Shown: piece after piece, positions 9,221 to 39,510 of the stretch
Position numbering within the stretch: the stretch's first letter is position 1
How the letters are laid out: each line of letters starts with the position of its first letter
DNA from: a bacterium
GTDB lineage: Bacteria; UBA8248
Length of the DNA: 64,000 nt
Reading direction: 5' to 3'
NCBI GenBank assembly: GCA_965213625.1
Contig: CBDBZU010000004.1
Span: 1,952,001-2,016,000 of the forward strand
Translations under genes and position numbers: made by a program
The notes under the pieces: model-generated
What the model was told of the DNA's origin: nothing
The model's database searches: none
Seen by the model: the letters and a program-made list of their open reading frames with translations, nothing else

Positions 9221-10051
9221 TAATAAAGCAGGACACCTTGAGTCTCCGGGGCTTCACGGCCCCGGGGCCGGGGCGAGTTGTGAAGGAGAACGAATAGGGG
9301 GGTTGCTCGTTGGTTGCTCTCTCGTGATGGGTAAACTGTACCGCTCCTGGCTATGAGTTTGAGTCCTCGAGCCGGGAACGGGAACAACGAGCAACCCCTG
9401 TTCTTCTTCATGCACCAAGAGAAAAAGGGACTGCCCCCCTCTCCAGGAACAACCCGGGATAGAGAGGGCGGGCGGTCCCTTTCTTATGTGGACATCTTTC
9501 AAGCTATTCGGTGTAGATGCAGGAGTTTTCCGCTCTCGCTTCCGTTCTCCCGTGCCACGTATGTCTTTTCTTATTTGTGTCTGTCTGTCGCAAGAACACC
9601 AGAAAACCCCTGGCGGGTTTTCGCATCCCCCATCTCAAGGGAGCATATCATCGCACCATTTGATCCATGTCTTCGAAGCCTACCTCATGAATCGATTAAT
9701 TTGACTTTAGGAATTTACTGATTCATGTTCCCGCCAGCGCGGAGATGAAGCGGGGAAGCCTGAGGATGTATTCACTGGGAAACCACCTAACCTAGCGCGG
9801 AAAGAGTCTGCTTTCGCCGGGAGGCGACGGCGCATCCTGCGTTCCCGCCCCCTAGGTATCCGGTTCCGGCGGAAGACGCATGCCTTGATCGCATGTCTGA
9901 GCGTGTCTGTCGTAAAACGTCGAAATTCCGTTTTCTATCTGGTTGAAATCCTCATGTTTTCGTATTATATTCGTAATTAAGGACCGACAGGAGCGCGGCG
10001 GGAAATCCCCGCCGCCGCTCCCGCGACACGCATGATGGGGAGAACACTTCT

Positions 10052-10672: not shown

Positions 10673-13614
10673 TGGTCGCCTCGATCGGAGCGGTGGCGAG
10701 CCCCTCGCAAGGTGCTAATTACTACGAGCGGGATGGCTACTACGCGAAGGACTCGGCAGAGCACCTTGCCTCAAGCGCCTGGGCCGGCAAGGGCGCCGAA
10801 GCCCTGGGGCTCGAGGGACCGGTCGACCCGGACTTGTTCCGGGCGGTGCTCGAGGGCTGTGTGCCCGACGGCTCAGGGCGGCGTCTCGGCCGAAGGACCC
10901 GGGAGGGAGGGATTCACCACCGGCCCGGGCGCGACATCACCTTCTCGGCACCCAAGTCCGTGTCCCTGGTCGCGCTCATCGGCGGGGACGCGCGCGTCGT
11001 CGACGCCCACGACCGCGCCGTCACGAGGGCGCTCGACTGGTTCGAGCGAAACGCCGCCGAGACGAGGATGAAGGACCCTGAGACGGGACGTATAGTCCGG
11101 GCCGGCGGCCAGAAGGCCGTGATCGCGACGTTCCGCCACGAGACGTCGAGAAACCTCGACCCGGCGCTGCATACCCACTCTGTCATCGCCAACATGCTGC
11201 TCGGCGCGGAGGGCAAGTGGAGGACGATGGCGAACGAGCGCCTCTACGCGTCGAAGATGCTGCTGGGCGCGCTCTACCGGAGCGAACTCGCGGGTGAGCT
11301 AATGAGACTCGGGTACCGGATCGAGAAGACCCACGCCGACGGGCGGTTCGAGATCGGGGGCGTCTCGCGCGAAACCATCGAGGCGTTCTCCTCGCGCCGC
11401 ACGGAGATCGAGGCGGCGATGGAAAGCCGGGGCCACGGCGCCACGGCGGAGAACCAGCACCTCGCCCGGCGGGCGGCCCTGATGACCCGCGCGCACAAGC
11501 GCGACGTGGACAAGGAGGCGCTGCGTGGGATCTGGGCCAAACAGGCATCGGAACTCGGTCTTGACGCGAAAGCGCTCGTCGCCTCGGCCACCGAACGGGC
11601 GTTGCACGTCCCTGGGAAAGAGAGGGCACGGGAAGCGGGCAGGGACTTTTCGCCCGGGGCGGACCCCTCGAAGGAGGCCGTCGAGTGGGCGCTCGCCCAC
11701 CTCTCGGAGCGCGATGCGGTGTTCGCGAGGACGGATCTACTCGCCGCAACGCTCGCCCACGGCCCAGGCTCCGCATCCATCGGGGCCATCGAGCGGGTCG
11801 TCGAGGGCCTCAAGCGCGAGGGCCGCCTGTACGATGCGCCGGCGCTCAAGGGAGGCGGCGGGCTGACCACCGATCTGGCCGTGGCCCGCGAGCGCGAGAC
11901 GATCACACTCATGCGAATGGGTGCTGGCCGGGGCAAGGCGGCGATGCGCGGCTGGATGGTGGAGCGGCACCTGCGCAAGGGGCCGCTCACGGACGGTCAG
12001 AAACAGGCGGTGAAACTCATCTTATCGGAGAAGGACCGGACTGTCGGCGTGCAGGGCTACGCCGGTGTTGGCAAGACGCGGATGCTCGATCGCGCGCGAA
12101 CGATTGCCGCGAAGAAGAGCTGGCGCGTCATGGGACTCGCCCCATCGGCGTCCGCGGTACGCACGCTGGAGGCGGAATCGGGGATTAAGAGCGAGACTTT
12201 GCAGCGGTTCCTGGCGAGGAACGCAGGATTGGCCCAAGGCCGCCTCACGAAAGGGGCCGCCAGAAAGATGCACGCCGCCTTCGCGAAGACAGTGCTGGTG
12301 GTCGATGAGGGCTCGCTGGCGTCCACCGCCCAGGCCCGCGACCTGCTTGAAATCGCGAGCGTCCTGCGCATACCGAAGCTGGTACTCGTCGGAGACGCTA
12401 AACAACTCGAAGCCGTAGACGCCGGTAAACCATTCGCCCAGTTCCAGGCCGCGGGTATGAAGACCGCGGTGATGGACGAAATACTGCGCCAGCGCGCCCC
12501 CGATCTCAAGGCTGCGGTCGAGGCCACTCTCGCGGGCGAGATCGGGCGCGCATTTCAAAAACTGGGAGACAACGTCGCAGAAGTAAACCCTAAAAACATC
12601 GCAGGCGCCGTGGCGGCAAGGTGGCTGAAACTCTCCCCCGACATGCGCGAGCGCACCGGGGTGATGTCGCCTGGCCATGAACTGCGCGAGGCGATCAACG
12701 CCCACATCCGTGAACGCCTGGTGCGCGAGGGCCGCATCGCGGGTCCGGCGCTCCTGACGAAGCGGCTGGTGTCTAAGGGCTACACGAACGCCGAGAAGGC
12801 GCTCGCGGCCAACTACGCGCCCGGCGACGTGGTCGCCTTCCACCGATCCTACAAGAGGCTCGGCGTCGAAAAGGGCGAGGAGCGGCGCGTTCTGGGCGTG
12901 GATCGCGAGCGTGGAACCGTCCGGCTCGAAGCCCCTGGCGGCTCGATTGTGGACTGGAAGCCGGCCCGGATCGGCGGAAGGCGGGGCGGGACCGAGGTCT
13001 ACCGCCCCGAAACCATCGAGCTTCGCGCCGGCGACCGGGTGCGCTGGACCCGGAACGACAAGGGTCTGGGACTCGTGAACAGCGCCACAGCGGAGGTTTT
13101 AGGGGTCCGCAACGGGCGGGTGACGTTCACCCTCGAGGAAGGCCGCAAGCTCGTCCTCACCCGGGGCGACCCGCAACTGCGCCATCTCGATCGCGCCTGG
13201 GCCTCGACCGTGCACGCCTTTCAGGGGCGCACGGTGGACAACGTCATCGCCGCGATGGAGGCGAACCACCCCCACCTGACCACGGCGAAAGCGTTTTACG
13301 TCGAGATATCGCGCGCCCGGGACAGGGCCGAACTCGTCACCGACGACGCGAAGGCGCTCAAGGAGCGGCTCGAAACCGTCACCGGCGAGCGCATCTCCGC
13401 ACTCGAAGGCATCGGGGAGACCGTCCAACCGGCACACGGACGTGAGCACGGGAAGGATGGGAAAGCGTCGCCGAGCCTCGTACAGCGGAGCGCGGAGGCA
13501 TCGACGCCACCTTCGCCGGAGAGAGAAATCAAGCCAAAACTCACACGCGACAGGATGCCGGAGCCCGGGCCGTCCGCGCGCGAGAAGCGCATCGATATGG
13601 ATTTGGGGCTCTGA
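10672..13614 (+). CDS. trwC: MOBF relaxase-helicase (TrwC/TraI family)
   Basis: N-terminal YY..DGYY, DITFSAPKSVS, HETSRNLDPALHTH (3H), Walker A QGYAGVGKT, VVDEGS, and HAFQGRT. Confidence 0.96.
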   Translation: MVASIGAVASPSQGANYYERDGYYAKDSAEHLASSAWAGKGAEALGLEGPVDPDLFRAVLEGCVPDGSGRRLGRRTREGGIHHRPGRDITFSAPKSVSLVALIGGDARVVDAHDRAVTRALDWFERNAAETRMKDPETGRIVRAGGQKAVIATFRHETSRNLDPALHTHSVIANMLLGAEGKWRTMANERLYASKMLLGALYRSELAGELMRLGYRIEKTHADGRFEIGGVSRETIEAFSSRRTEIEAAMESRGHGATAENQHLARRAALMTRAHKRDVDKEALRGIWAKQASELGLDAKALVASATERALHVPGKERAREAGRDFSPGADPSKEAVEWALAHLSERDAVFARTDLLAATLAHGPGSASIGAIERVVEGLKREGRLYDAPALKGGGGLTTDLAVARERETITLMRMGAGRGKAAMRGWMVERHLRKGPLTDGQKQAVKLILSEKDRTVGVQGYAGVGKTRMLDRARTIAAKKSWRVMGLAPSASAVRTLEAESGIKSETLQRFLARNAGLAQGRLTKGAARKMHAAFAKTVLVVDEGSLASTAQARDLLEIASVLRIPKLVLVGDAKQLEAVDAGKPFAQFQAAGMKTAVMDEILRQRAPDLKAAVEATLAGEIGRAFQKLGDNVAEVNPKNIAGAVAARWLKLSPDMRERTGVMSPGHELREAINAHIRERLVREGRIAGPALLTKRLVSKGYTNAEKALAANYAPGDVVAFHRSYKRLGVEKGEERRVLGVDRERGTVRLEAPGGSIVDWKPARIGGRRGGTEVYRPETIELRAGDRVRWTRNDKGLGLVNSATAEVLGVRNGRVTFTLEEGRKLVLTRGDPQLRHLDRAWASTVHAFQGRTVDNVIAAMEANHPHLTTAKAFYVEISRARDRAELVTDDAKALKERLETVTGERISALEGIGETVQPAHGREHGKDGKASPSLVQRSAEASTPPSPEREIKPKLTRDRMPEPGPSAREKRIDMDLGL

Positions 13615-13689
13615 GCATGGACATGCTTTGCCGCTGACAGGAGTTCGTAAGCCGGAGCCGCGTAAAAGCCGCTATGGAGGTCGATAGGT

Positions 13690-15033
13690 TCACGAGCGCA
13701 GGCGCCACCGCAACCGTCCGGCCTGGAAGGGCCGGGGTTTCTTTTCCCAGCGCTCCAAGCCGGCCAACCAGTAGCAGGCGTAACTGATCTGGTCGTTCTC
13801 GTCGGTCGTCGGTTCTGCCTTAACGGCGCGTTCGTGGATTCGGGGCCAGTCAGCCACGTATTCCCGAACGAACCAGCCCAGCGCGAGAAGCGCCGCACGC
13901 TCATCCCCGGTCAAATCGCGGAACATGTCCTGAAGGTCCACGTAGGACGGCAATCTGTCATACTCCGCGAGATCTTCAGCCGACCGGAATACAAACCTGT
14001 CGTGCTGATCCTCGGCTTTGTCCGCCTCACGCGCATCGACATCACTCTGCCAAGCCGTATAGGCGTCGTTCAATTTCTCGACCTTCGATCGGGAAATCGC
14101 GGGAGCCGGGTCGCGTCTCGCATCAGTCTCCATGATCCACTTTACGGTCAGCTCTCGTTCTTCGCGCAATCCGTCTAGGTCGTCGTCGTCGGGGCGCGGC
14201 TCCCTTATCGTCAGCGGCCACAACGGATATGGCCAGTGCCGTGCGATGAAACGTGCGTCCGATTCTTCGATGGCGCCGCAATGCTGTGCGAGACGGTTCA
14301 GCGTTTCGGCGATCAGGTGGTGCAATTCCCCGCGATCTGTGTGCGGCTCGGGCGCAAAGTCTCTCCAGACATGAGCGATTTCGGCGAGGCCGTCGGCCGA
14401 AACAGCGCCCGCTCGGGACAAGGATTGGACAAGCATGACACAATCTGACGTCATATATTACGACTGGGAATCGTACGGATTGGCCGGAGCAATCCAGAAG
14501 CACGCGCCTGCGCCGTCGGTCACATCCTGGACATAATCGACATAGAGGTCGCGTTCACGTTTCTCCGAAACCGCGTTCGGGAAGATCGAGTCGATCTCGT
14601 TCGGTCCGTCGAGATACCAAGGGCGGCACTCGCGCTCGACCAAGTCCGAGACTTCACCGAACGATGCGATCCTCGGATATTCGCATGCCATGGCATGGAT
14701 TCGCTTCGCAACATGGCCGTAGAAGCGGTCCAACACCTGCGATCTTTGTCCTGATTTCCTCGAACATCGAACATAGTCGATGAGGATCTGTACCTTTGCG
14801 GCCTCCTCCTCGGCGAAGCCACGCATGACCTCCGAAGCGCGGAACTCCCCGTCCCGGTATAGTCGCTGGGCGATTTCATCGAGGCTCGTCGCATTGTCGA
14901 CGATAAGCGGCATGCCCTCCGACAACGTCTCCAGGAGATCGATGTCGGAAAGCTGCTCCAGATTGCGTATTGCCCGTCTCACTCGATGCCTCCCATCCGA
15001 TACGATTGCGACGCGTATATCTTCTTTTACCAT
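13690..15033 (-). pseudogene. AbiV-family (HEPN) protein with DUF3775-like C-terminus, interrupted by one in-frame TAA
   Basis: FAEEEAAK...FYGHVAK...RERDLYVDY is AbiV-like. ORFs 14458-15045 and 13690-14454 share a frame (TCG TAA TAT ATG). LTGDERAALLALGW is DUF3775-like. Confidence 0.7.
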
Positions 15034-15085
15034 GGCTTGAAGCAATCCCTGACGAAGGGATAGGAGCTTCCGGCGACGGAGTTAC

Positions 15086-15472
15086 TCACGCAGTGCCTTC
15101 GTCCATGGTCTCTGCCATTGTTCTTCGGGCCGCGGCGATGAGGTCCTCGAGCTCTTTCCCGCGCCCGGCGTCGATCAATCGTCCCCGATCCAGGGTCGCC
15201 ATCACGTATACCATGCGGTAGACGGACTCAATGAGGGCGGCATGACCGTGTGACAGGGTGGCCTTTGGAGGCTCGTCGAGCAGTTCCTCGACGACGGCCA
15301 TCGCGCCGTTGCGGACGAGTTCACCGGCCGGGATGCCGTGCAACTCGGCGGCCCGTTGAACCAGACTCCACTCCTTACCGGTGAAGCGAATCGAGTGCGG
15401 CGCTCGCGGATCGCCCGGTTTTTCCGTCGGCTTATTGCCCTTTCGGGGCTGATTCGGATCGTTTCGCGTCAT
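15086..15472 (-). CDS. Ribbon-helix-helix relaxosome accessory protein (MobC/TrwA-like)
   Basis: PHSIRFTGKEWSLVQRAAELHGIPAGELVR RHH pattern; RBS GAGG; next to the oriT candidate. Confidence 0.65.
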   Translation of the reverse strand: MTRNDPNQPRKGNKPTEKPGDPRAPHSIRFTGKEWSLVQRAAELHGIPAGELVRNGAMAVVEELLDEPPKATLSHGHAALIESVYRMVYVMATLDRGRLIDAGRGKELEDLIAAARRTMAETMDEGTA

Positions 15473-15699
15473 CTTTTTCACTTCCTCAGGACAAGATCGG
15501 GTGGCGATACGGACCGCATCGATCGCATAACCGGGCTCTGACACGGTTCGTTTGAGGTGAAAACACGGGCGTATGCGGGGCCGTAGAGGCTTGATTGAAC
15601 GTCCCGCCTTCAGGGTCTTGCAGCCATTCGCGAGGAGTGCTCCGCATAGGTGGTGGCCCTTGCGCAGCGCGAAAAAGCCGGAATCGGGAGCATTCGAAC

Positions 15700-15830
15700 G
15701 CATTGCGCATCGTAATACGTCGTATTACGATGCGCCACCAATTACTACCAAACTGGTATCCATGCACGACATGCGCAGCCATGCGCCCTCGGGGATGAGA
15801 AAGATTGCGTATGCTATGAGCATACATGTT
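15700..15830 (+). other. Candidate oriT
   Basis: Perfect 15-bp inverted repeat GCGCATCGTAATACG-T-CGTATTACGATGCGC (15705-15735); TGCGTATGCTATGAGC (15806-15821) resembles the R388 nic region TGCGTATTGTCT^ATAGC. Confidence 0.55.
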
Positions 15831-16177
15831 ATCCGCCATGCGCCTGGCGCCCCGTGTCGTCCACAGGAGACGGGATAGCAACCAGGTCGTCGTATGCCGG
15901 AGCCTTGCAGCCCGCTGCGTTCCGGTGTGTAACCCGAAGCGCCGAAGGGCGTCAGATGGTCGAGTTCGTGAGAACAGACGATGGGGGAATCTTGCCGGCG
16001 ATAATGGCGAGCGGGAGCCGCCGCGGCGATTGAGCGTTAGGAGCAATGCGGGGAGATGTTCCTGCGGCAAGACCAGCGGAGTCTTCATCGTTGCCGGCGC
16101 AAGCGTTGCTCGACGAGACGCAACGGGCCGCGACGCCACCGGGCGGGGTGGCGACGCGACCGGTCAGGTGCTTCACA

Positions 16178-17131
16178 TCAGGCGGCCACGCGTTGCACGG
16201 GTATGCCGAGGGTTTTAGCCTTGTCGACGAGGTTGTCGGTGATGCCCGAGCCGGGGAACGCGATCACGCCCTTGGGCAGGAGTGCCAGGAGTTCGTCGTT
16301 GCGCCGGAATGGAGCGGCCCGTCCGTGGGCATCCCAATCCGGCTTGCAGACGACCTGGTGGACGCCGTTTCTCTCGGCCCATCCCGCCGCTATCTTCTCC
16401 GCACCGGGGCCGCCGCCGTGGACGAGAACGACGTCGGCGTACTTGGCCTTAACCTTGTCGAGGTGGCCGATGATTTTACCCGCATCGTTCGCCTCCTTGC
16501 CTCCCGCGACGGCGACGAGGGTTCCCTGGGGAAGATGAGCCGTGTTCTCGCGGTCCTTTCTGGCACGCTGGAAGTCGCGCGCCTCGATCACGGCGGAGGT
16601 CAGTTTGCCGGTCTGCGAGACGTGTGATCCTCGCCTCGGCCGCCATACCTCGCCGGTCTCGATGCGGTAGGCCTCTGCGGCCGTGTCGCGCAACCCTTCG
16701 AAGGCGTCGCGGCGTTCCGTGAGGTTGTTGGCCCGGTCGGTCTTGAGTTCGAGTTCGCGGGAGCGGATCTCGGAGCCGTCCTGCTCGCGCTGCAGTTCGC
16801 GGATGCCGGGGATGAGTTTTTCGGCGGCGCGGTCGAGCCTCTGGGTCTGGGCGTCGAGGGTGTTGACGAATCCCCACAGGAGGTTTCTTCGCTCATCGGC
16901 GAGTTGCGTGCCGTCGGGCGCTGCTTCCGCGAGTGCGCCGAAGGCCTTGATGACGGCGGCGGTGGCCTCGCCCTCGTCCCACACGGGGCGGTTGTCGAAC
17001 TCATCCGGCCCAGGTGTTGCGCCGAACAGGGCGGCCTGCTCGCAGACCATGGCGGTGAATGATTCATTCTGCGCTTCGTGTTCCGTGTGCTCGTTCATGT
17101 TCATCTCCTTGTGGTCGTGTATAGCGGTCAT
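16178..17131 (-). CDS. DUF2493 / YspA-like SLOG domain protein
   Basis: VAVAGG, LVHGGGPGAEKIAAGWA, PDWDAHGRAAPFRRND and FPGSGITDNL motifs. Confidence 0.85.
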   Translation of the reverse strand: MTAIHDHKEMNMNEHTEHEAQNESFTAMVCEQAALFGATPGPDEFDNRPVWDEGEATAAVIKAFGALAEAAPDGTQLADERRNLLWGFVNTLDAQTQRLDRAAEKLIPGIRELQREQDGSEIRSRELELKTDRANNLTERRDAFEGLRDTAAEAYRIETGEVWRPRRGSHVSQTGKLTSAVIEARDFQRARKDRENTAHLPQGTLVAVAGGKEANDAGKIIGHLDKVKAKYADVVLVHGGGPGAEKIAAGWAERNGVHQVVCKPDWDAHGRAAPFRRNDELLALLPKGVIAFPGSGITDNLVDKAKTLGIPVQRVAA

Positions 17132-17152
17132 CGTTCGCTCCTTTGGTAGTCC

Positions 17153-17524
17153 TCAAGCGAGGGGATGGTTGAATTCGGGAAGAGCGTAGCCACGCTCGTT
17201 GCGCCCCACTTCCCTGGGCATCTCGTCGAGATACCTTGCTGCCCACTCGGCGGCGCGCGCGAGGACGTCGCCGTGGCACGGGAGGGGATGGCAGTGGCAG
17301 CCGAGCTCGCAGCCCTGGAGGTCGGCGAGTTCGTAGAGGTCCAGTTCCTCCTGTCGGATTTTTCTCCACAGCCATCGCCGGTATTTCTCGATGACGTCGT
17401 CGCGGTCGCCGTCGGTGCCGAGCCGGAAGGGGTTTCCCCACTTCGTCATGCGGTCGATCCTCACCAGCAAGCCACTGCCGTTTTCTGCGACATAGTCGTT
17501 CAGGTTCACCACGGTGGTTTCCAT
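17153..17524 (-). CDS. DUF4326 domain protein
   Basis: RIDRMTKWGNPF...VIEKYRRWL...LGCHCHPLPCHGDVL; RBS AAGGAG. Confidence 0.85.
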   Translation of the reverse strand: METTVVNLNDYVAENGSGLLVRIDRMTKWGNPFRLGTDGDRDDVIEKYRRWLWRKIRQEELDLYELADLQGCELGCHCHPLPCHGDVLARAAEWAARYLDEMPREVGRNERGYALPEFNHPLA

Positions 17525-17561
17525 GCCTTACTCCTTTCCAGAGAGTTAACGGATGCGCTTT

Positions 17562-17750
17562 TTAGCGCCTCATTTTCAGCACGTGCTAGGCGTGGGTGTC
17601 AGGGGCGGTTTTCAGTCTTTTTTTCACCCGGAGGGCGCGTAGCGGAAAAAATCCATGCTTCACCGATTTTTTCTGAAAAAAAGATGCTTTTGCGTTATTT
17701 GCAAAAGCACCCTTGACCCCGCGCCGTTCGTGCTAAAATGAGGACGCTAA
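17562..17750. promoter_or_regulatory. Frpo-like single-stranded DNA promoter hairpin
   Basis: ~45-nt imperfect arms 17562-17606 and 17708-17750 pair; the right arm carries TTGACC (17713) and TGcTAAAAT (17731-17739); three internal stems. Confidence 0.7.
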
Positions 17751-18081
17751 GAGAGAGACATCAGTACCGCCACCGGGACACAAGAGTTTTTGGGTGTTTC
17801 ACGATGAAGGCGAAGCTCATCGGGAAACATCCCTTCATGCTGCGGAAAGGGTCATTCCGGGCCGTTATTCGGCCCGGAATTCCCGCAGCGGGGGGTAGAC
17901 TGAGCCACTGTCTTGAATACGGGATGATTGCAGGCGCAAGTCGATCTTCCGTGAACACGGTTTACCGTTCACGGAATAGGAGATTCTTCAGGAGTTCCCG
18001 GTAGACGAGAGAAGCCTACAGGGCGGGAAAGGCGCGGGAGAGGGTGTTCGGGGCATAATGGGCCTCCTCGGGATCCGGAGC

Positions 18082-18118
18082 AAAAAAGAAGGGGGTCAGC
18101 GCGTGGCGCCGACCCCCC
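18082..18118 (-). terminator. Intrinsic terminator after ssb
   Basis: GGGGGTCGGCGC-CAC-GCGCTGACCCCC followed by TTCTTTTTT on the minus strand. Confidence 0.7.
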
Positions 18119-18125
18119 GAGGTGA

Positions 18126-18566
18126 TCAGAATGGAATCTCCTGCCCGGCTACGCCCGCGCTCACCGCCACGTCGGCCGTCTCGGGGTGTGCGTCGTTACC
18201 GTTGCCATTGCCGTTCATCTTCTCCAAAAACTGCACCCGCCCGCCAGGAGCGATGAGGATCTCGGTCGAGAACCGGTCCGAGTCTTCCTCCTCCTTCTTC
18301 CAGCGGCGGGTCTGGAGCTTGCCCGCGACGTAGACCAGGCGTCCCTTCTTCGCGTGCTTCTCGAACATGTCCACCAGGCCGGGCTGGAAGGTGACGACCC
18401 GGTGCCACTCCGTCTTGTCGATGCGGTCACCGGATTGTCGGTCCACGTAGCCCTCATCGGTCGCAATGGATAGATTCGCGACACGCCCCCCGCTCGCGAG
18501 ATGGTTGATGGTGACGTCGGCGCCGAGACGCCCGATCAGTTCCGCACGGTTCAGTCCGAATGCCAT
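18126..18566 (-). CDS. ssb: Single-stranded DNA-binding protein
   Basis: LNRAELIGRLGAD, TEWHRVV, KGRLVYVAGKLQTRRW and C-terminal EIPF. Confidence 0.95.
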   Translation of the reverse strand: MAFGLNRAELIGRLGADVTINHLASGGRVANLSIATDEGYVDRQSGDRIDKTEWHRVVTFQPGLVDMFEKHAKKGRLVYVAGKLQTRRWKKEEEDSDRFSTEILIAPGGRVQFLEKMNGNGNGNDAHPETADVAVSAGVAGQEIPF

Positions 18567-18643
18567 TGTAGTACTCCTTCGTGGTGAGAGTGTGAAAAAG
18601 TGACGGGAGGTAGAGAGCCTTTCTCTCCACTCCTCCGGTTCGC

Positions 18644-18778
18644 CTACACGCTACAGAACTCCTCCGCCTCGCCTTGCGCCTCGTCGCGCAGCTTGCTGAT
18701 CGTGTACGCGTCGAGTCCGAGTTCTGCGAGCAACTCATCCGCGGTGGGAACGTCGACGTCGTAGTCGTTCTCGTACAT
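18644..18778 (-). CDS. Small acidic protein, 44 aa (not in the ORF track)
   Basis: GAGGAGG RBS then MYENDYDVDVPTADELLAELGLDAYTISKLRDEAQGEAEEFCSV*; co-oriented with ssb. Confidence 0.65.
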   Translation of the reverse strand: MYENDYDVDVPTADELLAELGLDAYTISKLRDEAQGEAEEFCSV

Positions 18779-18980
18779 GGCCGTGCCTCCTCTCGGGTTG
18801 TCGCCGGCGGCGGGAGCTGGAGACCGTCTCCCTCTCCCCTGCCGGGCCTTTGCCCGGCTCCCCGCTTCCCTTTCACTCTCGAGAGGAGGTCCTCACCCGG
18901 CGGGAACCACTTGCGGAGGGCGCTTGCCATTGCCGCGGATTCGTGGCAGACAGCGCGCGGAGGTGAGGAAGGGAGGAGGT

Positions 18981-19430
18981 ATGGAACGACTCAAGCTCTG
19001 GTTGCCGGCGCTGCTGTGGCTGCCGGCGGGGATTATGGCGGAAGAGGTTTTGCGCGCGGGGTCCATGGAGGGTGTGAATACGCCGCTCGCCGTCCTGGAG
19101 TTGCTGCCCGCCGCTCCGTGCGGCATCCCGCTCGCGCTCGCCTGTAAGCGTCTCGCCCTCTCGGGCTATCCGGGTCCCGCCCTGTTGGCGTGGGTCTCGC
19201 TCGGCGCCGTCTCAGTCGCGGGCTTTTTCGGTCCGCTCCCTGTGGGCGTCCAGGCGATCCTGGTCTCTCTGCCGGTCTGGCTGGCGGCCTGGCGCATTGA
19301 GCGAAGGTCCCGCCGCCCGGGACTCGCCTTGCCTCGGGAATGGCGCGGGCGTTCGCCCGGCAGGTTCCTCCTCCGGGCGGTGAATGACCTGGAAGCCCCC
19401 CGCCGAAAACGCTTCCGGCAGACGCCCTGA
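18981..19430 (+). CDS. Hypothetical membrane protein
   Basis: RBS GGAGGAGGT before ATG 18981; several hydrophobic segments. Confidence 0.6.
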   Translation: MERLKLWLPALLWLPAGIMAEEVLRAGSMEGVNTPLAVLELLPAAPCGIPLALACKRLALSGYPGPALLAWVSLGAVSVAGFFGPLPVGVQAILVSLPVWLAAWRIERRSRRPGLALPREWRGRSPGRFLLRAVNDLEAPRRKRFRQTP

Positions 19431-19531
19431 GGTCGACGGGCCGGCGGCGCAGCAGGGCGGCGCCGAACCCTCCCCCCTCCGTCGTCGGCCCGACGGCGGT
19501 ACGTGCCCCGCCGCGATGGCTCAGGCGACGC

Positions 19532-20341
19532 TCACCACCCGGCGAGCCTGGAGATCGCGGGCGCGTCCTCGATGACCTCCACTTCCTCCCGGGAGAGCCT
19601 CTTGAAGGCGAGGCACATCGCCACCTCCTCCCAGGAGTCGAGGGGTCCGTGCTCTGCGCCCGTATTGAGTTCCACCACGGTGAACCGCGCCGGAAAGACC
19701 GGCATCCCCCTGTGCTCGCCGGAGGAGTGGTATGATCGTCGTGCGCACGGTGCGCACCTCGATGCTCCTTGTGTGTCGGATGAGCAGTCCACGCAGATCT
19801 CGCGGGCGCGTCTTTCGCGATAGCGCGCCCGGCTCGCGGCGTTCTTCCGCGGTCGGCGTTTCACGTCCCTTGCGGCGCACGAGGCGCACGTCGAAGCCCC
19901 CGCGAGGACCTCTCCTCCGCATCTTCGGCAAAGTCCCCCGGCGCGCCTTTTTTCATAAAGCTTCTTCTCCGCCGCGCGGCGCGAATCCTTGCAATTTTCG
20001 CAGACGGTGGCGCCCTCGGCGGGTTCTCGTTCGCCGCAAGTCGTGCAGAGCCCGGCTTCGAGACGATCGTCCCGGCGCTTCCTCGCCCTCACACGCGCCA
20101 TGCGGCGGCGGCTCTCTGGAGAGCGTCCTCCGTATCGAGCCCCCTCTCCCCGGGCTTTGGCGTACCGGGCGCGTTCGGCGGCCCGGTTTCTCGCGAGGCA
20201 GGATTCGCAGTGGCTTCGCCCGGGTGCGGGATAATCCCGGCCGCATTTTGGACATAAATTCCGCGCGCGGCGTTCGTCCGCTCTCCGCCTGTGGCGTTTG
20301 CGATCATAAGCGCGTCGCTTCTCCGGGTCCTTATGGGGCAT
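19532..20341 (-). CDS. Arg-rich protein with four CxxC...CxxC zinc-ribbon repeats
   Basis: CPKC..CESC, CTTC..CENC, CRRC..CASC and CVDC..CAPC separated by basic helices; RBS AGGAGG. Confidence 0.75.
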   Translation of the reverse strand: MPHKDPEKRRAYDRKRHRRRADERRARNLCPKCGRDYPAPGRSHCESCLARNRAAERARYAKARGEGARYGGRSPESRRRMARVRARKRRDDRLEAGLCTTCGEREPAEGATVCENCKDSRRAAEKKLYEKRRAGGLCRRCGGEVLAGASTCASCAARDVKRRPRKNAASRARYRERRAREICVDCSSDTQGASRCAPCARRSYHSSGEHRGMPVFPARFTVVELNTGAEHGPLDSWEEVAMCLAFKRLSREEVEVIEDAPAISRLAGW

Positions 20342-20426
20342 GGTTTCCCTCCTTTTGGCGACTGGAGTCCGCACGGACGGCAGTGGCGAGATGTCTTGCG
20401 GGCGGAAATGCTTCCCAGGAGGGACT

Positions 20427-20729
20427 TCATCCCCTGCTCATCATCCGGCCCCAGACGAGGTGTTCGCCCCAGAGCTGCAGTCCGCTCCCGGGGACCTTGA
20501 TCCCCGTACAGACGATGAGCTCGTCACGTGCGGGACGCATCTCCCGGACCGCCCGGCGCGAGGCCGTCACGCGTTTTCTTCTGGGCTTCCCGCTCTCAGG
20601 AGAGGGCGCGGGCCTGATGTCGCCCTCTCCCGTGGCTTTATAGCGCTTGACTTCGTATCGCTCGTCCGCCAGGCCAGGGCCCAGGAGATGGGTGAGAAAG
20701 GTGTTCGCTTCGGGTTTCGGTTTACGCAT
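20427..20729 (-). CDS. Hypothetical protein (100 aa)
   Basis: RBS AAGGAGG before ATG 20729; co-oriented with neighbouring leading-region genes. Confidence 0.5.
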   Translation of the reverse strand: MRKPKPEANTFLTHLLGPGLADERYEVKRYKATGEGDIRPAPSPESGKPRRKRVTASRRAVREMRPARDELIVCTGIKVPGSGLQLWGEHLVWGRMMSRG

Positions 20730-21127
20730 CGCGCCGCCTCCTTGTACGGGTGGGTGATGGCGGCGGAAGTGAACCTCGACCGGGAGAGCCTCCCTCCCGG
20801 ACCTTTCCGCCGCCCCCTCCCGGCCCGGCTCCGCCTCCCGGCGGGGCGGGGCGCGCCTGTGGAGGAAGAGAGGGATGCGGCTCGTATTCGCGCATTTTTT
20901 GTCGAATTTTTTTATCAAACCCCGGCGCGTGGAATGGTGGTCGTGAGCGCGTACGGCGGCAAGGCGCAGGAAATCCGCTACAAAATTTCCTTGCACGCGG
21001 ATTGATTTCGGATAATATGGGCGTCCGTGTAGAGGACCGGACGCCGCGGCGAACAAGCAGGGGGGTAGGCCGGGATACGGGGCGCGTGCCGCCGCATGAG
21101 CGGGAGAGAGCGGAGTTCATCGCGCGC

Positions 21128-21475
21128 TCAGGCGATGGGGCCGTGACCGTAGGGATAATCGTCGTCGTATATCTCGCCCTCCTCAAAATCCCTTCGCCAG
21201 GAGTAACGCCCCGTGCGGGTCTCCCAATCGAAGCGATCCTCGTCTTTCTCGGGGAGGGTGTAGGCGGTGAAGGCGGACCGGTCGCCGCGGTACGCCCGCC
21301 ACAGGGCGCCCGAGAGTGCTGTGAGGAATACCCAGAGCGCGGCGAGGAGCCAGGCCGCGGAGATGAAGCGGACGCCCATCCCGCCGCTTATGGCGATAAG
21401 GGTGAAGAGCAGCGCGAGAGCGGGTCCCGCCAGGACGAACAAGTGCGCCGCAGCGGATGGTTTCGGGTTTTTCAT
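21128..21475 (-). CDS. Hypothetical 2-TM protein with acidic C-terminal tail
   Basis: RBS GGAGG; two hydrophobic helices followed by EEGEIYDDDYPY. Confidence 0.6.
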   Translation of the reverse strand: MKNPKPSAAAHLFVLAGPALALLFTLIAISGGMGVRFISAAWLLAALWVFLTALSGALWRAYRGDRSAFTAYTLPEKDEDRFDWETRTGRYSWRRDFEEGEIYDDDYPYGHGPIA

Positions 21476-21736
21476 GGAAAATCCTCCCGGGTCGTGGGTC
21501 GATGGCGGAGGGGCGCGGCGGCCTCTCTCCACCCCGCGCCCTCGGCCCCGGGCTTCTCTCCCCGGCCTCCACCTCTCGCCGGCGGGCGGCGGGATGACGG
21601 CGACTCGGCGCGGCCTCATCGGGGAGGTTCCGGTGGTTTCGCCCGGCCGGCGGCGTTGTCCGGCGGCGCGGCTCGCAGGCGCGTGATTCGAACCCTCCGG
21701 GGAGAAGCGGGCGAAAATATCGAGAGGAGACGCGGG

Positions 21737-22078
21737 ATGGCGAAACAGGCGAAACGAAAGGAAACGGCGCTACGGGCGGCGATGAAAAAATCCGAACTGC
21801 TGGGTGCACTGTCCGATTCGACGGGGCTTCACAAAAAAGACGTGGCCCTGGTGCTCGATGAACTCGGAACTCTCATTGCGCGTCACCTCAAAAGACGCGC
21901 CGTGGGCGTATTCACGCTTCCGGGCCTTTTGAAGATCGAAGTCGCGCGCAAGCCGGCGAGAAAGGCGCGCCGGATGATCCTGCCCTTCAGCGGCGAGGAG
22001 ATCAGCGTGCCCGCGAAGCCCGCCTCGCGGACGGTCCGCCTCCGGCCGCTCACGGGGCTCAGGCGCATGGCGGAATAG
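21737..22078 (+). CDS. HU-family DNA-binding protein
   Basis: MKKSELLGALSDSTGLHKKDV...FTLPGLLKI..KPARKAR..PFSGEEI..PAKPA. Confidence 0.9.
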   Translation: MAKQAKRKETALRAAMKKSELLGALSDSTGLHKKDVALVLDELGTLIARHLKRRAVGVFTLPGLLKIEVARKPARKARRMILPFSGEEISVPAKPASRTVRLRPLTGLRRMAE

Positions 22079-22269
22079 AGAGCGATTCACCGGCCGGAGG
22101 GCGCCGATGCGCCCTCATCGCTTCCCGGCAAGGTCCGGACGATGGCGGTGGCCGCTCCCGTGCGGGGCGGCGCCCGGGGTTCAGGCGCCATCATTCGGAA
22201 GGAAGGGGAAGATGCGGAAACCGGGCATCCCGGTTGCAATCCGAACGGCGTTGCCGTACATATGGATAC

Positions 22270-22560
22270 ATGATCATTCGTTCTGTTCGTCATCGGGGAC
22301 TGCGTCGCCTGCTTGAAAATGATTCTTCCCGATTCCTGCGTCAGGATTTGGTGGACAGGGCGCGAAACATCATGACGGCGCTGATTCTTGCCGAAGACAT
22401 GGACGGGTTCATCGCCGAAGCGCCTCCCGGTTGGCGCATACACCGGCTTGGGGGAGCGCGTCGGGGCGTGTGGAGCGTTGCGGTGTCCGGCAACTGGCGA
22501 ATCACTTTTTCCGAAGAAGACGGCCGCCTAGACCATCTCAATCTGGAGGATTACCACTGA
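22270..22560 (+). CDS. higB: HigB toxin (RelE-like killer family)
   Basis: IRSVRHRGLRRL...WRIHRL.G.R.GVWSVAVSGNWRITF...LEDYH; toxin-first gene order. Confidence 0.92.
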   Translation: MIIRSVRHRGLRRLLENDSSRFLRQDLVDRARNIMTALILAEDMDGFIAEAPPGWRIHRLGGARRGVWSVAVSGNWRITFSEEDGRLDHLNLEDYH

Positions 22561-22865
22561 TGGCGAGAGACGGTATCGAGGTGCGCATGACCCCGTCGCA
22601 TCCCGGAAGGTTCATACGCACGGAGGTGCTCGAAACGCTGGGCTTGAGCGTGACGAGGAGCGCCGAGATTCTCGGTGTTCGCCGGGCGACGCTTTCGGCC
22701 CTGCTGAACGGCAACGCGTCGCTGTCGCCGGAGATGGCGCTACGTATCGAGCAGGCTTTCGGCGTAAGCATGGACATGTTGTTGCGGATGCAGGCCTGGT
22801 GCGACGCCTCGCGCATGCGGGTGCGGGCGGGCGAGATAAACGTGAAGCGTTATCACCCCGCATAG
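22560..22865 (+). CDS. higA: HigA antitoxin
   Basis: HPGRFIR...LGVRRATLSALLNG...SPEMALRIEQAFG...LRMQ; TGATG overlap with higB. Confidence 0.92.
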   Translation: MARDGIEVRMTPSHPGRFIRTEVLETLGLSVTRSAEILGVRRATLSALLNGNASLSPEMALRIEQAFGVSMDMLLRMQAWCDASRMRVRAGEINVKRYHPA

Positions 22866-23008
22866 CCTGCGGAAGCGCGGGAGTGAATGGTTTTCCGGAC
22901 CCGGTCGCGCATCATGCGGATATGAGAACTGGCGTCGATTCTCCGGGGAGCGAGTGAGCGCGAGAAGCCTTGCGTATCAGGGAGGTCGGAAGGACGCGGC
23001 CCGCGCCG

Positions 23009-24214
23009 CTACGGGGCGTGTTCTGAATCGAGAGCCCGCCTCCAGTCATCCTCCAATATGTCGTCGGCGATGCTCGCGGCGACGCGCTCGGCCGACTCGC
23101 GCACCGACTCGCGCGCGAGGTGCGCGTAGCGCGACGTGGTCTTGATCTGGGAGTGCCCCAGGAGTTTTCCGATCATCGTGAGGCTCTCGCCCAGGGCCAG
23201 GGCGCGCGAGGCGTAGGAATGCCTGAGGTCGTGGATCCGCACGTTCTCAAGACCAGCGCGCGAGCAGACGCTCTTCCAGATATGGTTGATGGAGCCGAGG
23301 TGCTCGCCGGGGTTCCTGGCAGGAAACACCCACGGGCTCCCGGGCGTCCTGGGCAGGGCGGAGAGGAGCTTGAGCGCCGGCGGCGATAAGGATACCACCC
23401 GTGCGCCCGTCTTGGCGTCGGGCAACCTGAATTCACGAGCCTCAAGCGAGACGTTCTCCCAGCGGAGCGAGAGTATCTCGCTCTTCCGGCACCCGGTCAG
23501 CATCAGAAGGCGGATGGCCGCCACCGCTCCCGCCGAACCGCGCCTGTTTTGGGCCTCCTCCAGGATGCGCCCCAGGCGGGTGTACTCCTTATCGGTCAGG
23601 AAGCGTTCGCGCTTGCGGTCGGGATACTTCACGATGGCGCGGCACGGGTTGCATTCCCCGGGGACCATGCCCCAGCCCTCGCCCAGCCTGTACATCAGCT
23701 TCAGGGTGCGGATCACCATGTTCGCCATGCAGGGTGTCCTGCCCAGCCGCTGGTGCAACTCCACGACCTGCGCGCGCTTGAGCGCCGCAAGCGGCGCCCT
23801 GCCCAGGGCCGGGAGGATGTGCTTGTACACCACCGCGCGGGCGAGATCCCCGGTGCTCGGCTTGCAGCGGACCGCCACGTGCTCCTCCATGTAGCGCCTC
23901 GCGAGATCGGCCACCGTGGGGTCTCCCGCGGGCTTCGCCGGTCTGGACGCTACTTCCTCGCCCGCCTTCACCCGCGCGATGACCGAGGCCGCGCGCTTCC
24001 TCGCCTCATCCGCGTTGATCACCCCGTGCCGACCCACCGTCACGCGCCTGGGACCCTTCGGCCCCCGGACCTGGGCGACGTAGACCTTGCTCCCCGTGGG
24101 GTAGACACGCACACCGAAGCCCGTGAGGTCGCGATCCCAGAAAACAGAGTCTTTTTCGACGACAAGCTTCTCCACCATGCGGTTCGAGAGCGTCCCGCCC
24201 TGCAGCTTCGCCAT
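23009..24214 (-). CDS. Tyrosine integrase with arm-binding N-terminal domain (copy 2)
   Basis: FWDRDLTGFGVRVYPTG; TGCRKSEI; HDLRHSYAS; LLGHSQIKTTSRYAH. Confidence 0.95.
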   Translation of the reverse strand: MAKLQGGTLSNRMVEKLVVEKDSVFWDRDLTGFGVRVYPTGSKVYVAQVRGPKGPRRVTVGRHGVINADEARKRAASVIARVKAGEEVASRPAKPAGDPTVADLARRYMEEHVAVRCKPSTGDLARAVVYKHILPALGRAPLAALKRAQVVELHQRLGRTPCMANMVIRTLKLMYRLGEGWGMVPGECNPCRAIVKYPDRKRERFLTDKEYTRLGRILEEAQNRRGSAGAVAAIRLLMLTGCRKSEILSLRWENVSLEAREFRLPDAKTGARVVSLSPPALKLLSALPRTPGSPWVFPARNPGEHLGSINHIWKSVCSRAGLENVRIHDLRHSYASRALALGESLTMIGKLLGHSQIKTTSRYAHLARESVRESAERVAASIADDILEDDWRRALDSEHAP

Positions 24215-24230
24215 CTCCGGTGCCTCCCCG

Positions 24231-25412
24231 TTATTCCGCCCGGGCTTCCGTGGCCCGTGGCTCCAGATGGACCCCAATGCTCTCCCCCACCCGGGCGGCC
24301 GCCGTCTTCTCCGCCTCGCGCATCAGGTGCGCGTAGCGCGCCGTCGTCGATATCCCTGCGTGTCCGAGCAGCTTCGCTATTGTGGGCAGCCCCTCGCCCA
24401 GCGCGAGCGCCCGGCTGGCGTAGGAGTGTCTCAGGTCGTGGACCCTTACGTCTTCGAGTCCCGCGCGCGCCCGCACCCGCCGCCAGACCAGTTCGAAGTA
24501 GGGCTTGTGGCTCCTCCCTTCCCGCCCGGGGAACACGCGGGCTTCCCCCGGCGTGCGCGGGACTTGACCGAGCACCACGAGTGCGGGAACCGTCAGGTGG
24601 ACCATGCGTGGCCCCGACTTCGCGTCCCTGAGCCTGAGCTCCCCCGCCGTGAGGTCCACGTCGTCCCAGCTGAGTTCCAGAATCTCGCATTTCCTGCACC
24701 CGGTCAGCATCACGAGGCGGAGCGCCGCAATCGTGGACGGCCGGGCCGACCCCTCCGCCTCCGCTTCGCGCAGCGCACGGCCCAGGCGGCGGAACTCCTC
24801 GGGCGTCAGAAAACGTTCGCGGGGGCGCCTTCGGTAGCGGCGCACCGCCCGACAAGGATTGCTCCCGGGCGGTATGAGGTCCCACGCCTCGGCCAGCACG
24901 TACATTCTAGAGAGCACGTCGACCGCTATGTCGGCCGCCTTGGGCGTCTCGCGCATGCGGTGGTGCATGGCCATGACGTCGCCTCCCGTGACCTCGCCGA
25001 TCCCCATCTCGCCAAAAGTCGGCAGGACGTGCTTCTCCAGCGTGCCTCCGTACGAAACGGCGGTGATCGGTTTGCAGTGCGCCGATACGTGGACGCGCAT
25101 GAAGCGCTCCGCCAGCCCCGCCACGGTGAGCTCCGCATCTGGTGCGGGGTTCTCCCCCCGCTTGATGCGGTCGATGAGGGCGGCGGCAAGCTTGCGCGCC
25201 TCGTCGCACGATATATCCCCGTGACGGCCCAGCGTCTTGCGATTCAGCCCGCCCGGCCCCCTCGACTGCACCACGTAGACCTTCCGACCCGTGGGATAGA
25301 CGCGCACACCGAAACCGGCCAGATCCCTGTCCCAGAAGACCACGTCCTTCCCCTCGACTTTGAGCGCGTCGACGGCGCGCTTCGTGAGCCTGCTCTTGCT
25401 TCTTTTCGGCAT
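24231..25412 (-). CDS. Tyrosine integrase with arm-binding N-terminal domain (copy 1)
   Basis: FWDRDLAGFGVRVYPTG; TGCRKCEI; HDLRHSYAS; LLGHAGISTTARYAH. Confidence 0.95.
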   Translation of the reverse strand: MPKRSKSRLTKRAVDALKVEGKDVVFWDRDLAGFGVRVYPTGRKVYVVQSRGPGGLNRKTLGRHGDISCDEARKLAAALIDRIKRGENPAPDAELTVAGLAERFMRVHVSAHCKPITAVSYGGTLEKHVLPTFGEMGIGEVTGGDVMAMHHRMRETPKAADIAVDVLSRMYVLAEAWDLIPPGSNPCRAVRRYRRRPRERFLTPEEFRRLGRALREAEAEGSARPSTIAALRLVMLTGCRKCEILELSWDDVDLTAGELRLRDAKSGPRMVHLTVPALVVLGQVPRTPGEARVFPGREGRSHKPYFELVWRRVRARAGLEDVRVHDLRHSYASRALALGEGLPTIAKLLGHAGISTTARYAHLMREAEKTAAARVGESIGVHLEPRATEARAE

Positions 25413-25685
25413 GGTTCCTCCCCTGAAACCGTGATCAAATCGTAAACGCGCGGCATCAAACAGGCGCGTATTGGAGCACACGCCTGACGAGGTTGCAAGC
25501 ACCGGGGAAGGTGGAGATAGAGTTAAACATGAATTAAATCAGTTATTTATCGTATCAGAGCGCGTTCTGTGGGGTGACTGGCGGGGAGAGAAATTTTAAC
25601 GTGTACTTGCCGGCTTTCTCCGAGTAACCTCCTTTCCTTGGCTTTATTTGGGCCGTTAAACCTGGTTGTGTGTTTTCATGGTGGA

Positions 25686-25847
25686 CCGGAGAGCGGGAGC
25701 TTCTCGGGCTCGCCGTCCGGGCCGATTCAAAACACCATTCAGGAGGAGTGCTCTTCAGGTGGGTTTCCCGCCTGTCGGAGGGTGGGTCTTTTTTTTTCCG
25801 CCGTCACCTGGTGGTGACCGCTCCTCGTGAACCGTGTCGCAAACTCG
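25686..25847. ncRNA. Putative structured RNA/ssDNA element, unit B (family unassigned)
   Basis: Homologous to unit A: CCGGA..TCCGG hairpin, long closing stem and AGGTGGG-TTT-CCCGCCT hairpin. Confidence 0.5.
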
Positions 25848-25954
25848 GGTCAATCAAGTATTTCAGCGCAATTGCGCTTCGTCCGGTGCTTCTCCTCTCT
25901 TCTTTTATATATACGGGCAGTGACTTAGCCGTTTTGTGATCGCATTCGGCAGCG

Positions 25955-26126
25955 CCGGAGGGCGAACCCCAGTCGACTCGCAGTCCGGGCTGGTTGCGAC
26001 ACAATCCACGAGGTATAGGTTCTTGAGGTGGGTTCCCGCCTATTTCGCTCCCCCAGGAGGGGACCGTTTTGTATTCAGCGGGCAGCCCGAAGTCGACTGC
26101 ACCTCATGGAGTGTGTCGCAACCTCG
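25955..26126. ncRNA. Putative structured RNA/ssDNA element, unit A (family unassigned)
   Basis: GGTTGCGACAC..TCCACGAGGT pairs with ACCTCATGGA..GTGTCGCAACC; a minus-strand TTGACA (26151-26156) and CAATAT point into it. Confidence 0.55.
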
Positions 26127-26345
26127 ATATTGCTACACCCTTTTGGGTTTTGTCAAGGTGATTTTCTCGCCGTAATCGACCTTTTGTGAAAGGCCGCCTC
26201 GTGGTTGGCGAACAGCCGAAGCCTCATCACCTCGCGGATTGTGTCGCACGAATCCATCTTGGGGGAATTGTGAAGATTTTGTCAAGACGAAGTTTTTGGT
26301 CAGTTCCGACCGGGGAAGGAGGAACTGCGGGCGAGGAGGGGGTTT

Positions 26346-26540: not shown

Positions 26541-26565
26541 CGTATGTTGTATGAGGGGGACGTCC

Positions 26566-39475: not shown

Positions 39476-39510
39476 CAGTTTCAGCGGCGGTTTGCTCCGC
39501 CGCTCCTATG

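Follow-up and report, generated by a model that had tools for sequence, protein, structure and literature searches.

Organisation of the locus

The window, the whole stretch of 64,000 nt that was analysed, carries two tandem integrase genes and, upstream of these on the same strand, a series of structured elements. Integrase 1 (24231..25412, minus strand) encodes 393 aa from an ATG at 25412, has the ribosome-binding site GGGGAGGAA at its start codon and matches the Pfam domains Arm-DNA-bind_3 and Phage_integrase; integrase 2 (23009..24277, minus strand) has the same pair of domains and is about 52% identical to integrase 1 by tblastn. Both genes lie at one end of an integrative mobilisable element of about 26.5 kb, delimited by its Pfam content and by the junctions observed at loci L040 and L137, which occupies positions 1..25609 and runs about 880 nt past the left end of the window. 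Its other genes, as assigned by Pfam, encode a TrwC relaxase-helicase (10672-13614), SSB, AbiEii, AbiV, an MqsA-like HTH protein, an ankyrin protein, an HU-like protein and an XRE regulator.

Between the element and position 26285 lie three units, here called C, A and B in their order on the minus strand. Units A and B are homologous structured elements, as the initial annotation had proposed: a repeat search recovered their shared blocks (D1, D2, D5 and D7), and alignment, folding and covariance-model scores agree with it. Unit A (25978..26125, minus strand) is a canonical family member, supported by covariation and by scores of 162.3 and 138.6 bits against the two covariance models described below (R1 and R2, respectively). 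Its closing stem, P1, was found by the repeat search as two arms of 23 nt (25992-26014 and 26101-26123) which are 91% complementary and separated by 86 nt. P1 encloses a helix P2, a variable hairpin P3 and the conserved junctions GAAUACAAAACG and GAAAUAGGCGGGAACCCAC, and a pseudoknot can form between CGGGCUG (26089-26083) and CAGCCCG (25992-25986). A further hairpin, P4, follows at 25950..25992 (minus strand); in the minimum-free-energy (MFE) fold its stem is CCGGA...UCCGG (25955-25988), and an extension of this stem (CAGC:GCUG) is possible which would swallow the 3' strand of the pseudoknot. The sequence CCGGCGCUG within P4 is kept in relatives.

Unit B (25710..25846, minus strand) is a divergent member, recognised by its fold and by 69 bits against R1 and 57.8 bits against R2. 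It retains P1, GGGAAACCCACCU, the tail and P4 (25686-25721), and lacks the canonical P2 and junction; the sequence UCCUCCUGAAU lies within its 3' arm. The closing stems of the two units differ in a compensatory manner, with CUCCAUGAGGU/ACCUCGUGGAU in A where the alignment has GUUCACGAGGAG/CUCCUCCUGAAU in B, so that the paired changes noted in the initial annotation are borne out, together with its picture of a conserved scaffold whose interior hairpins vary. Compared with 200 shuffled sequences, the fold of unit A has a z-score of -5.4 for the minus strand and -4.7 for the plus strand, and that of unit B one of -3.6 for either strand.

The repeat search also returned a third copy of the arm, at 26229-26248, whose 20 nt show 95% complementarity to the 3' arm of A. 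We therefore recognise a third, partial unit C (26130..26249, minus strand), which matches R1 over 26130-26247 (26.6 bits) and is kept in relatives. It consists of a 5' arm (26229-26248) with P2 and P3-like hairpins; a separate 3' arm is missing, and at its 3' end the unit extends into the promoter of unit A. The similarity among the three units is far beyond chance, with a model built from 13 copies scoring A at 162, B at 69 and C at 27 bits. On the integrase side, the conserved leader ends in a GGAAAGGAGG box and a small hairpin (25610..25637, minus strand), as judged from a four-way alignment of attB-like, attL and attR sequences and from the limits of the conserved block.

A multi-copy RNA family in Nitrospinota

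When the 583-nt block containing the three units was used as a BLAST query against 60 relatives, the entire block was recovered at about 76-80% identity in eight genomes of the same genus, along with many dispersed matches of 100-130 nt. Covariance model R1 was built from 13 copies and model R2 from 94 matches; together they describe a multi-copy RNA of about 135-150 nt. R1 finds five copies in the window's own genome: unit A (162 bits), a copy at C4:791676-791816 (138 bits), unit B (69 bits), a copy 485-631 nt to the left of the window (about 38 bits) and unit C (27 bits). Among the 51 Nitrospinota genomes sampled, 24 have R1 matches, including 20 of the 22 genomes of the window's genus; R2 recovers exactly these 24, giving a total of 186 matches at E<=1e-4 and as many as 17 in a single genome. 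Tandem arrays are common. Outside the genus we found single copies in three other genera, two in another family (96, 83 and 63 bits), and an exact-pattern scan of 185,579 species genomes returned 25 stretches, all of which come from Nitrospinota, Nitrospinaceae or MAG records named only 'bacterium'.

None of the 4227 models of Rfam 15 fits the family, among them those for 6S, C4, tmRNA, SRP, known riboswitches, STAXI and int-alpA. At gathering thresholds, the window yielded only two cobalamin riboswitches and one tRNA, all of them elsewhere; over 25300-26600 at E<=10, the best matches were to unrelated lncRNA and sRNA models and fell far under threshold; and at eight other loci searched at relaxed E-values, no match coincided with a family copy. 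With E allowed up to 5-10, neither the units nor five other copies matched any family. The initial annotation had been unable to assign the elements to tRNA, tmRNA, SRP or a riboswitch, and this stands after the Rfam search that it called for; its candidates 6S and C4 are contradicted by the same search. A full-text literature search, within the text that it returned, gave no relevant paper on this family or on RNA-based regulation in Nitrospinota. We take the trio C, A and B to be tandem copies of a pseudoknotted RNA not described before, most likely transcribed from the minus strand.

Covariation supports a pseudoknotted core

In the canonical architecture, P1 encloses P2 and the variable P3, flanked by the near-invariant junctions GAAUACAAGACG and GAAAUAGGCGGGAACCCAC; GGGCUG on the 5' side of the core and CAGCCC in the 3' tail form the pseudoknot, and the P4 hairpin comes after it. 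The nested helices, together with the pseudoknot, which was proposed from the sequences themselves, were counted over 90 distinct copies. We found that 91.5% of cells pair, as against 77.4% in shuffled alignments (none of 500 shuffles was as high) and at most 43.4% when the partners are slid out of register. Changes on both sides are seen at 33 of the 35 pairs, a count which, for the nested helices, was made on a model-fitted alignment that favours them. The pseudoknot helix was absent from the search model and is therefore free of this bias; it is 90.4% paired, and five of its seven pairs covary. Its pair 58-208, for example, is UA in 40 copies, CG in 29 and UG in 13, and at the level of the whole helix GGGCUG with CAGCCC alternates with GGGUCG and either CGACCC or CGGCCC. 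An aptamer-like fold with covariation support, as would be expected of a riboswitch, is thus found here both in the 33 covarying pairs and in a pseudoknot that does not depend on the model.

For each of the 91 copies, folding predicts a second partner for the tail among the downstream bases, with which it would form part of P4. As it takes part in both structures, the pseudoknot and the extended P4 would be alternatives to each other.

These data bear on the idea that the copies are MITE-like miniature transposable elements, the terminal inverted repeats of which mimic an RNA stem. The family is indeed multi-copy with a unit of about 140 nt, its ends are inverted repeats of 15-23 nt, and transposases are frequent in the flanks. 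On the other hand, the terminal repeats are not conserved in sequence, the arms changing yet staying complementary, G-U pairs included; copies within one genome are not near-identical but have diverged (37 to 162 bits), and copies are syntenic across species; the interior junctions are the best-conserved part, the opposite of what a MITE would show; and the repeat is preceded by a promoter outside it, at a constant distance (see below). We give this explanation almost no weight.

Promoters, strand and expression

Reading of the sequence identifies a putative promoter ahead of unit C (26256..26285, minus strand), with a -35 hexamer TTGACA at 26285-26280, an 18-nt spacer and a -10 hexamer CAAGAT at 26261-26256, from which transcription would be expected to start near 26249. 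The corresponding promoter of unit A (26127..26156, minus strand) has TTGACA at 26156-26151, a spacer of 18 nt and CAATAT at 26132-26127, and its expected start near 26120 falls at the first pairs of P1. The latter is the minus-strand TTGACA-18-CAATAT of the initial annotation; it is present, and alignment shows that both promoters (TTGACA-N18-CAAGAT/CAATAT) keep their position in eight loci from genomes of the same genus. Neither was listed by a consensus promoter scan, because their -10 hexamers match the consensus at only three of six positions. The same scan listed terminator-like hairpins on the plus strand inside units B and A, which we read as the complement of the A-rich junction.

Across the family, TTGAC occurs 29-32 nt before the model start in 58 of the 91 distinct copies (30 nt in 33 copies, 31 nt in 17, 29 nt in seven and 32 nt in one), with an xAxxAT hexamer about 17 nt later, while the spacer sequence varies between subfamilies of the RNA. 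Given this fixed distance, transcription would begin at the first pairs of P1. Canonical members would accordingly each have a sigma-70-type promoter of their own, with a predicted start at the closing stem. As to strand, many of the pairs counted in the 90 distinct copies are G-U, which would read A-C on the opposite strand, and units A, B and C are most likely all read on the minus strand.

There is a weak hint that the region of units A and C is expressed. Runs labelled as sponge or marine metatranscriptomes contain shares of 0.05-0.11 of the stretch, and contigs of 228, 267 and 172 nt from runs filed as RNA are confined to 25936-26210, a segment with unit A and parts of C. It is no more than a hint because the contigs carry neither strand nor ends; the uncovered parts are not evidence in either direction, and one of the runs was only guessed to be RNA.

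Integrases probably adjoin the leader through insertion of a mobilisable element

The far junction of the mobilisable element, together with the displaced lipoprotein gene, is found in L040 and L137. A putative crossover core, AGAAAGCCGG, lies at 25619-25610 in the window, and homology with island-free relatives ends just downstream of it. In alignment, the attB-like sites of L018 and L021 are divided precisely at AGAAAG(C/T)CGG, one part being found at the window junction and the other at the L040 junction: the integrase-side junction retains the left half of the island-free site and the lipoprotein-side junction its right half, the core differing by one base between the two. The same insertion at the same point is present in genome G020. 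A site-specific element is expected to have an integrase near one of its ends, a short core shared by its junctions and an island-free allele in relatives. All three are seen here, and from these alignments the mobilisable element is judged to have integrated at AGAAAG(C/U)CGG, separating the leader from the lipoprotein gene that belongs to it. At its far end are half a unit C, a unit A promoter and a divergent family member, A', which now stands before the lipoprotein gene; the element thus appears to have brought its own divergent member of the family to that gene.

Elsewhere, family copies are rarely found near integrases. Only one of the 11 block-bearing loci of the same genus has an integrase (L025), and a tblastn search of 135 loci with both integrases places them near a family copy only at the window's own locus and at L025/L069, L052 and L056. 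At L056, the integrase gene is 5.4 kb away on the opposite strand; at L052, the RNA points away from the integrases and an IS1595 transposase lies between. Since integrases accompany so few copies, we interpret their adjacency in the window as a consequence of where a mobile element landed.

The initial annotation had linked the units to the tandem integrases, suggested co-occurrence as a check and named homologues unlinked to integrases as an outcome that would speak against it. Such unlinked homologues are what we found, and in seven relatives the block leads straight to the lipoprotein gene. That the RNAs, or folded DNA, serve the integrases as guides, regulators or recombination sites is consistent with the position of the trio about 200-300 nt upstream of the integrases and on the same strand in both the own genome and G020, with the second homologous integrase pair near another copy (L052), and with the junction alignment, from which A' would again precede the integrases in an excised circle. 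Against these points stand the near absence of integrase genes around roughly 90 distinct copies, the presence of the family in 20 of the 22 genomes of the genus, and the arrangement at L052. Nor do homologues lie consistently beside a recombinase gene, as they would in a bridge-RNA-type (IS110) system. The folded single-stranded recombination site that the initial annotation also considered fits poorly with the G-U pairs, the covariation of the pseudoknot and the fixed promoter, and the same holds for an arm-site interpretation. As for control of the integrase by unit B, the duplex of this unit with the integrase ribosome-binding site ranks only 19/51 and 17/51 when compared with other copies, which is the level of the controls and leaves such control without support. 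An integrase-related function therefore seems to us highly improbable.

Family members often precede genes for exported and surface proteins

In seven relatives (L018-L024), a lipoprotein gene starts 147-155 nt beyond the C-A-B block, and its product begins M(M/K/T)FREK...LAGCGGGGG. This gene (583 aa) is also present in the own genome, at a distance of about 26.5 kb. To describe the neighbourhoods of other copies, we used 40 further loci, comprising all the non-trio matches listed for four genomes (with clusters merged) and six loci from genomes that have few copies or lie outside the genus, and judged by eye whether the first co-oriented gene encodes a lipobox or a signal-peptide-like N-terminus. 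This was so at 28 of the 40 loci, 13 of which have a C-GGGG lipoprotein. The 12 loci outside this pattern comprise three with a small cytoplasmic-looking protein, one with a hybrid histidine kinase, two in which a sugar transferase lies beyond 400 nt, four carrying the most conserved copy type (L038 type) with no gene nearby, and two at which the first downstream gene is ambiguous. Many of the 40 loci, as of the family copies in general, are orthologous and the counts are not independent; they are therefore descriptive and do not amount to a statistical test.

Pfam matches among the downstream genes include TbpB_B_D with FHBP_C, followed by a Slam (SlipAM) gene; others are OMP_b-brl, CsgG, 17-kDa antigen, four fn3 domains, ankyrin repeats and DUF4875. 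The own genome has one Slam gene and several TbpB_B_D matches, and both of its loci lie upstream of lipoproteins of the C-GGGG type. Downstream of the second of these copies (L038 type), a 349-aa TbpB_B_D lipoprotein with CGGGGG begins at a distance of 1,373 nt; it has no homologue at the other L038-type loci fetched. The 583-aa lipoprotein has no match in Pfam or among PDB sequences, and a BLASTP comparison with the TbpB-like protein found at L044 shows no significant similarity. Its neighbours in the ESM Atlas that carry TbpB_B_D, FHBP_C or HpuA score 0.86-0.89, and we treat these as a lead only to its identity.

A co-oriented open reading frame with a ribosome-binding site follows at +30 to +330 nt in 52 of the 91 copies, in many cases at +30 to +70. 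The family thus occupies the co-oriented 5' UTR position in which a riboswitch would be found, with the four conserved gene-less loci as exceptions. The same figure argues against the units being genes of trans-acting sibling small RNAs that lie upstream of other genes by chance, as do the terminator-like U-run that follows only one of the 91 copies and the match of some arms to the ribosome-binding site of their own gene (see below). A separate promoter for each canonical copy, the frequency of tandem arrays, the restriction of short RNA-library contigs to units A and C and the occurrence of gene-less copies would all fit such small RNAs. On balance we regard them as unlikely, though less so than either the transposon-like or the integrase-related explanation.

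A predicted relay of competing helices

We propose, with a probability of roughly 60%, that the family is a new cis-acting leader RNA of genes for exported and surface proteins, which resembles a riboswitch aptamer, which would be organised at this locus as a relay, and to which the integrases are external. The proposal is drawn from comparative sequence data, and how the leader would work is inferred.

In this proposal, the family would act in cis as the 5' leader of the genes that follow it, and units C, A and B would form a relay in which helices compete. Three partners would be available to the 3' arm of A, namely the 5' arms of C, A itself and B. If P1 of A is formed, P1 of B could close as well, leaving the lipoprotein gene with an accessible ribosome-binding site. 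If it is not, the 3' arm of A would take the 5' arm of B, and the 3' arm of B (UCCUCCUGAAU) would then be free to cover that ribosome-binding site (AUUCAGGAGGA). P4 may also capture the tail in place of the pseudoknot.

Several observations are in keeping with this scheme. The repeat search shows the 3' arm of A to be complementary to the 5' arms of C (I3), A (I1) and B (I5). In the relatives, the duplex of the 3' arm of A with the 5' arm of B, as read from the alignment, pairs at 20 of 20 positions including two G-U pairs, and UCCUCCUGAAU in the 3' arm of B is perfectly complementary to the lipoprotein ribosome-binding region AUUCAGGAGGA. In L018, the latter duplex has a calculated energy of -28.7 kcal/mol, a value not exceeded by any of 28 cross-controls (rank 0/28) or of 100 shuffles (0/100); it ranks 1/28, or second best, in L022 and L024 and is unremarkable in L019-L021. 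The arm complementarities and the duplex energy suggest a relay in which closure of P1 in A would free the ribosome-binding site.

Two modes of action were also considered for the family as a whole. Occlusion of the ribosome-binding site by the element gave a mixed result: its pairing ranks 3 or better among cross-controls in 11 of 36 copies (8 of 24 groups), and many copies do no better than shuffled sequences. P4 has little support as an intrinsic terminator, a U-run following it in only one of the 91 copies.

The latter scarcity of terminator-type platforms is also among the points in favour of a leader that binds a protein or RNA polymerase, as the target of a lineage-specific regulator or as a processive antiterminator, with the gene-less L038-type copy serving as a titrating decoy. 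In 58 of the 91 copies, the element has a fixed place right at the start of the predicted transcript; some leaders are long, with up to 1.37 kb before the gene; and one highly conserved copy type has no gene nearby at any of the four loci fetched. Against this, no candidate protein was found and CsrA was not detected in the own genome, and the family has about 25 near-invariant unpaired bases in addition to its pseudoknot. Unpaired bases of this kind together with a pseudoknot are more typical of ligand pockets. We consider a protein-binding leader the strongest of the competing explanations, though a rather unlikely one.

The family is most likely a structured cis-regulatory leader RNA and a candidate riboswitch. 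A bolder form of our proposal would have it as a new riboswitch class, with a ligand, perhaps host-derived or a second messenger, that switches much of the surface and secreted proteome together (Slam-type lipoproteins, outer-membrane proteins, ankyrin and fibronectin-type proteins), with tandem relays, and with mobile elements that use the leader to integrate and supply a replacement copy by which the target gene is rewired. We advance this version tentatively and think it rather doubtful at present.

Comparison with known systems

Orphan riboswitch candidates, listed in Rfam under 'Cis-reg', share with this family a covarying and pseudoknotted core, invariant junctions, a position at the 5' end of mRNAs and tandem occurrence, as well as alternative pairings of the tail and the ribosome-binding site, which in the present case are predicted. 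The family differs from them in matching nothing in Rfam 15, in lacking a uniform expression platform and in the unusually fixed distance to its promoter.

Riboswitches of the c-di-GMP-I and -II classes occur in many copies per genome, also in tandem, upstream of genes for surface, adhesion and signalling functions. The present family resembles them in its many copies, its tandem arrays and its neighbourhoods of surface or secreted protein, sugar transferase and histidine kinase genes. The RF01786 covariance model gave no match to it; RF01051 also gave none, but as the control for this model matched in no genome the result is uninformative. With RF01786 absent and a single GGDEF match in the own genome, we do not identify the family as a c-di-GMP riboswitch, and the likeness stays a loose analogy.

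Elements with P4-type integrases use the 3' ends of genes for tRNA, tmRNA or small RNAs as integration sites. The mobilisable element described here is similar in that its integrase gene lies directly downstream of a conserved RNA locus and is co-oriented with it, in that a short core is present at both junctions, and in that it carries a substitute copy of the displaced part. It differs in its target, which is the 3' part of an mRNA leader and not a stable RNA gene, in having two tandem integrases, and in that its core is a predicted one.

Loh and co-workers are said to have described, in 2013, an RNA thermosensor in the 5' UTR of Neisseria fHbp. The likeness in that case lies in a leader RNA which masks, here by prediction, the ribosome-binding site ahead of a Slam-dependent type of surface lipoprotein; the thermosensor is a simple hairpin which has no homology to the present RNA, no pseudoknotted core and no multi-copy family.

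Implications for Nitrospinota

With about 186 detectable copies and strong covariation that extends to a pseudoknot, the family is worth pursuing. The set of genes that it precedes is coherent, consisting of genes for surface lipoproteins that have a Slam partner, for proteins of the outer membrane and for proteins with ankyrin and fn3 domains of eukaryotic type, and the RNA provides a testable handle on the control of the cell surface in an uncultured lineage. The locus itself appears to show a mobile element entering an mRNA leader and bringing a substitute leader of its own. Should a ligand be found, the family would add a class to the known riboswitches.

Mobile-element boundaries and cargo

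The island of about 26.5 kb that carries two integrases has its far end to the left of the window in the same genome (L040 1501-1740, equivalent to G000:C4:1951369-1951608). This end bears half of a unit C, the unit A promoter and a divergent member of the leader RNA family, A', which scores 38 bits with the first covariance model (R1) and 52 bits with the second (R2). With the lipoprotein gene displaced, A' is now the copy situated 305 nt upstream of it. The cargo of the element includes an ankyrin-repeat protein (window 1457-2218, plus strand); another ankyrin-repeat protein (L134 1335-2471), with a signal-peptide-like N-terminus, is encoded downstream of a family copy.

A second TrwC relaxase and AAA_30 helicase survive as pieces spread across several short ORFs on the far side of the lipoprotein gene, downstream of it (L137 2599-4055, G000:C4), and are probably the leftover of another mobile element. 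A second tandem integrase pair (L052 1478-3810), 52-65% identical to the integrases of the window, has as neighbours an IS1595 transposase and a further copy of the RNA family, the latter oriented away from the integrases.

Repeats and structured RNAs

A gene for a REP-associated tyrosine transposase and adjoining nested GTAGGGACAGG...CCTGTCCCTAC palindromes are found on the minus strand of the window (26346-26436 and 26566-27099). The protein matches Pfam Y1_Tnp and NCBIfam REP_Tyr_transpos (E = 8e-18, under the model's cut-off). The palindromes are matched by numerous short contigs from RNA-labelled runs and are therefore a dispersed repeat. Two tandem cobalamin riboswitch aptamers, separated by about 370 nt, are also present on the minus strand (39324-39487 and 39854-40038; 89 and 115 bits).

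Within the divergent unit B, a terminator-like hairpin on the plus strand (window 25767-25796) is followed by T9, which on the minus strand is an A9 run in place of the conserved junction of canonical members. Behind the second own-genome family copy, a stretch of about 1.37 kb (L138 2304-3676) extends to a TbpB_B_D lipoprotein gene; it opens with a repeat of the 3' arm of the closing stem P1, joined to GGAGG and AUG (GGGAGGAUUGUAUGGG), and contains no convincing ORF on the coding strand. A leader of unusual length, or else an additional RNA, may account for this stretch.
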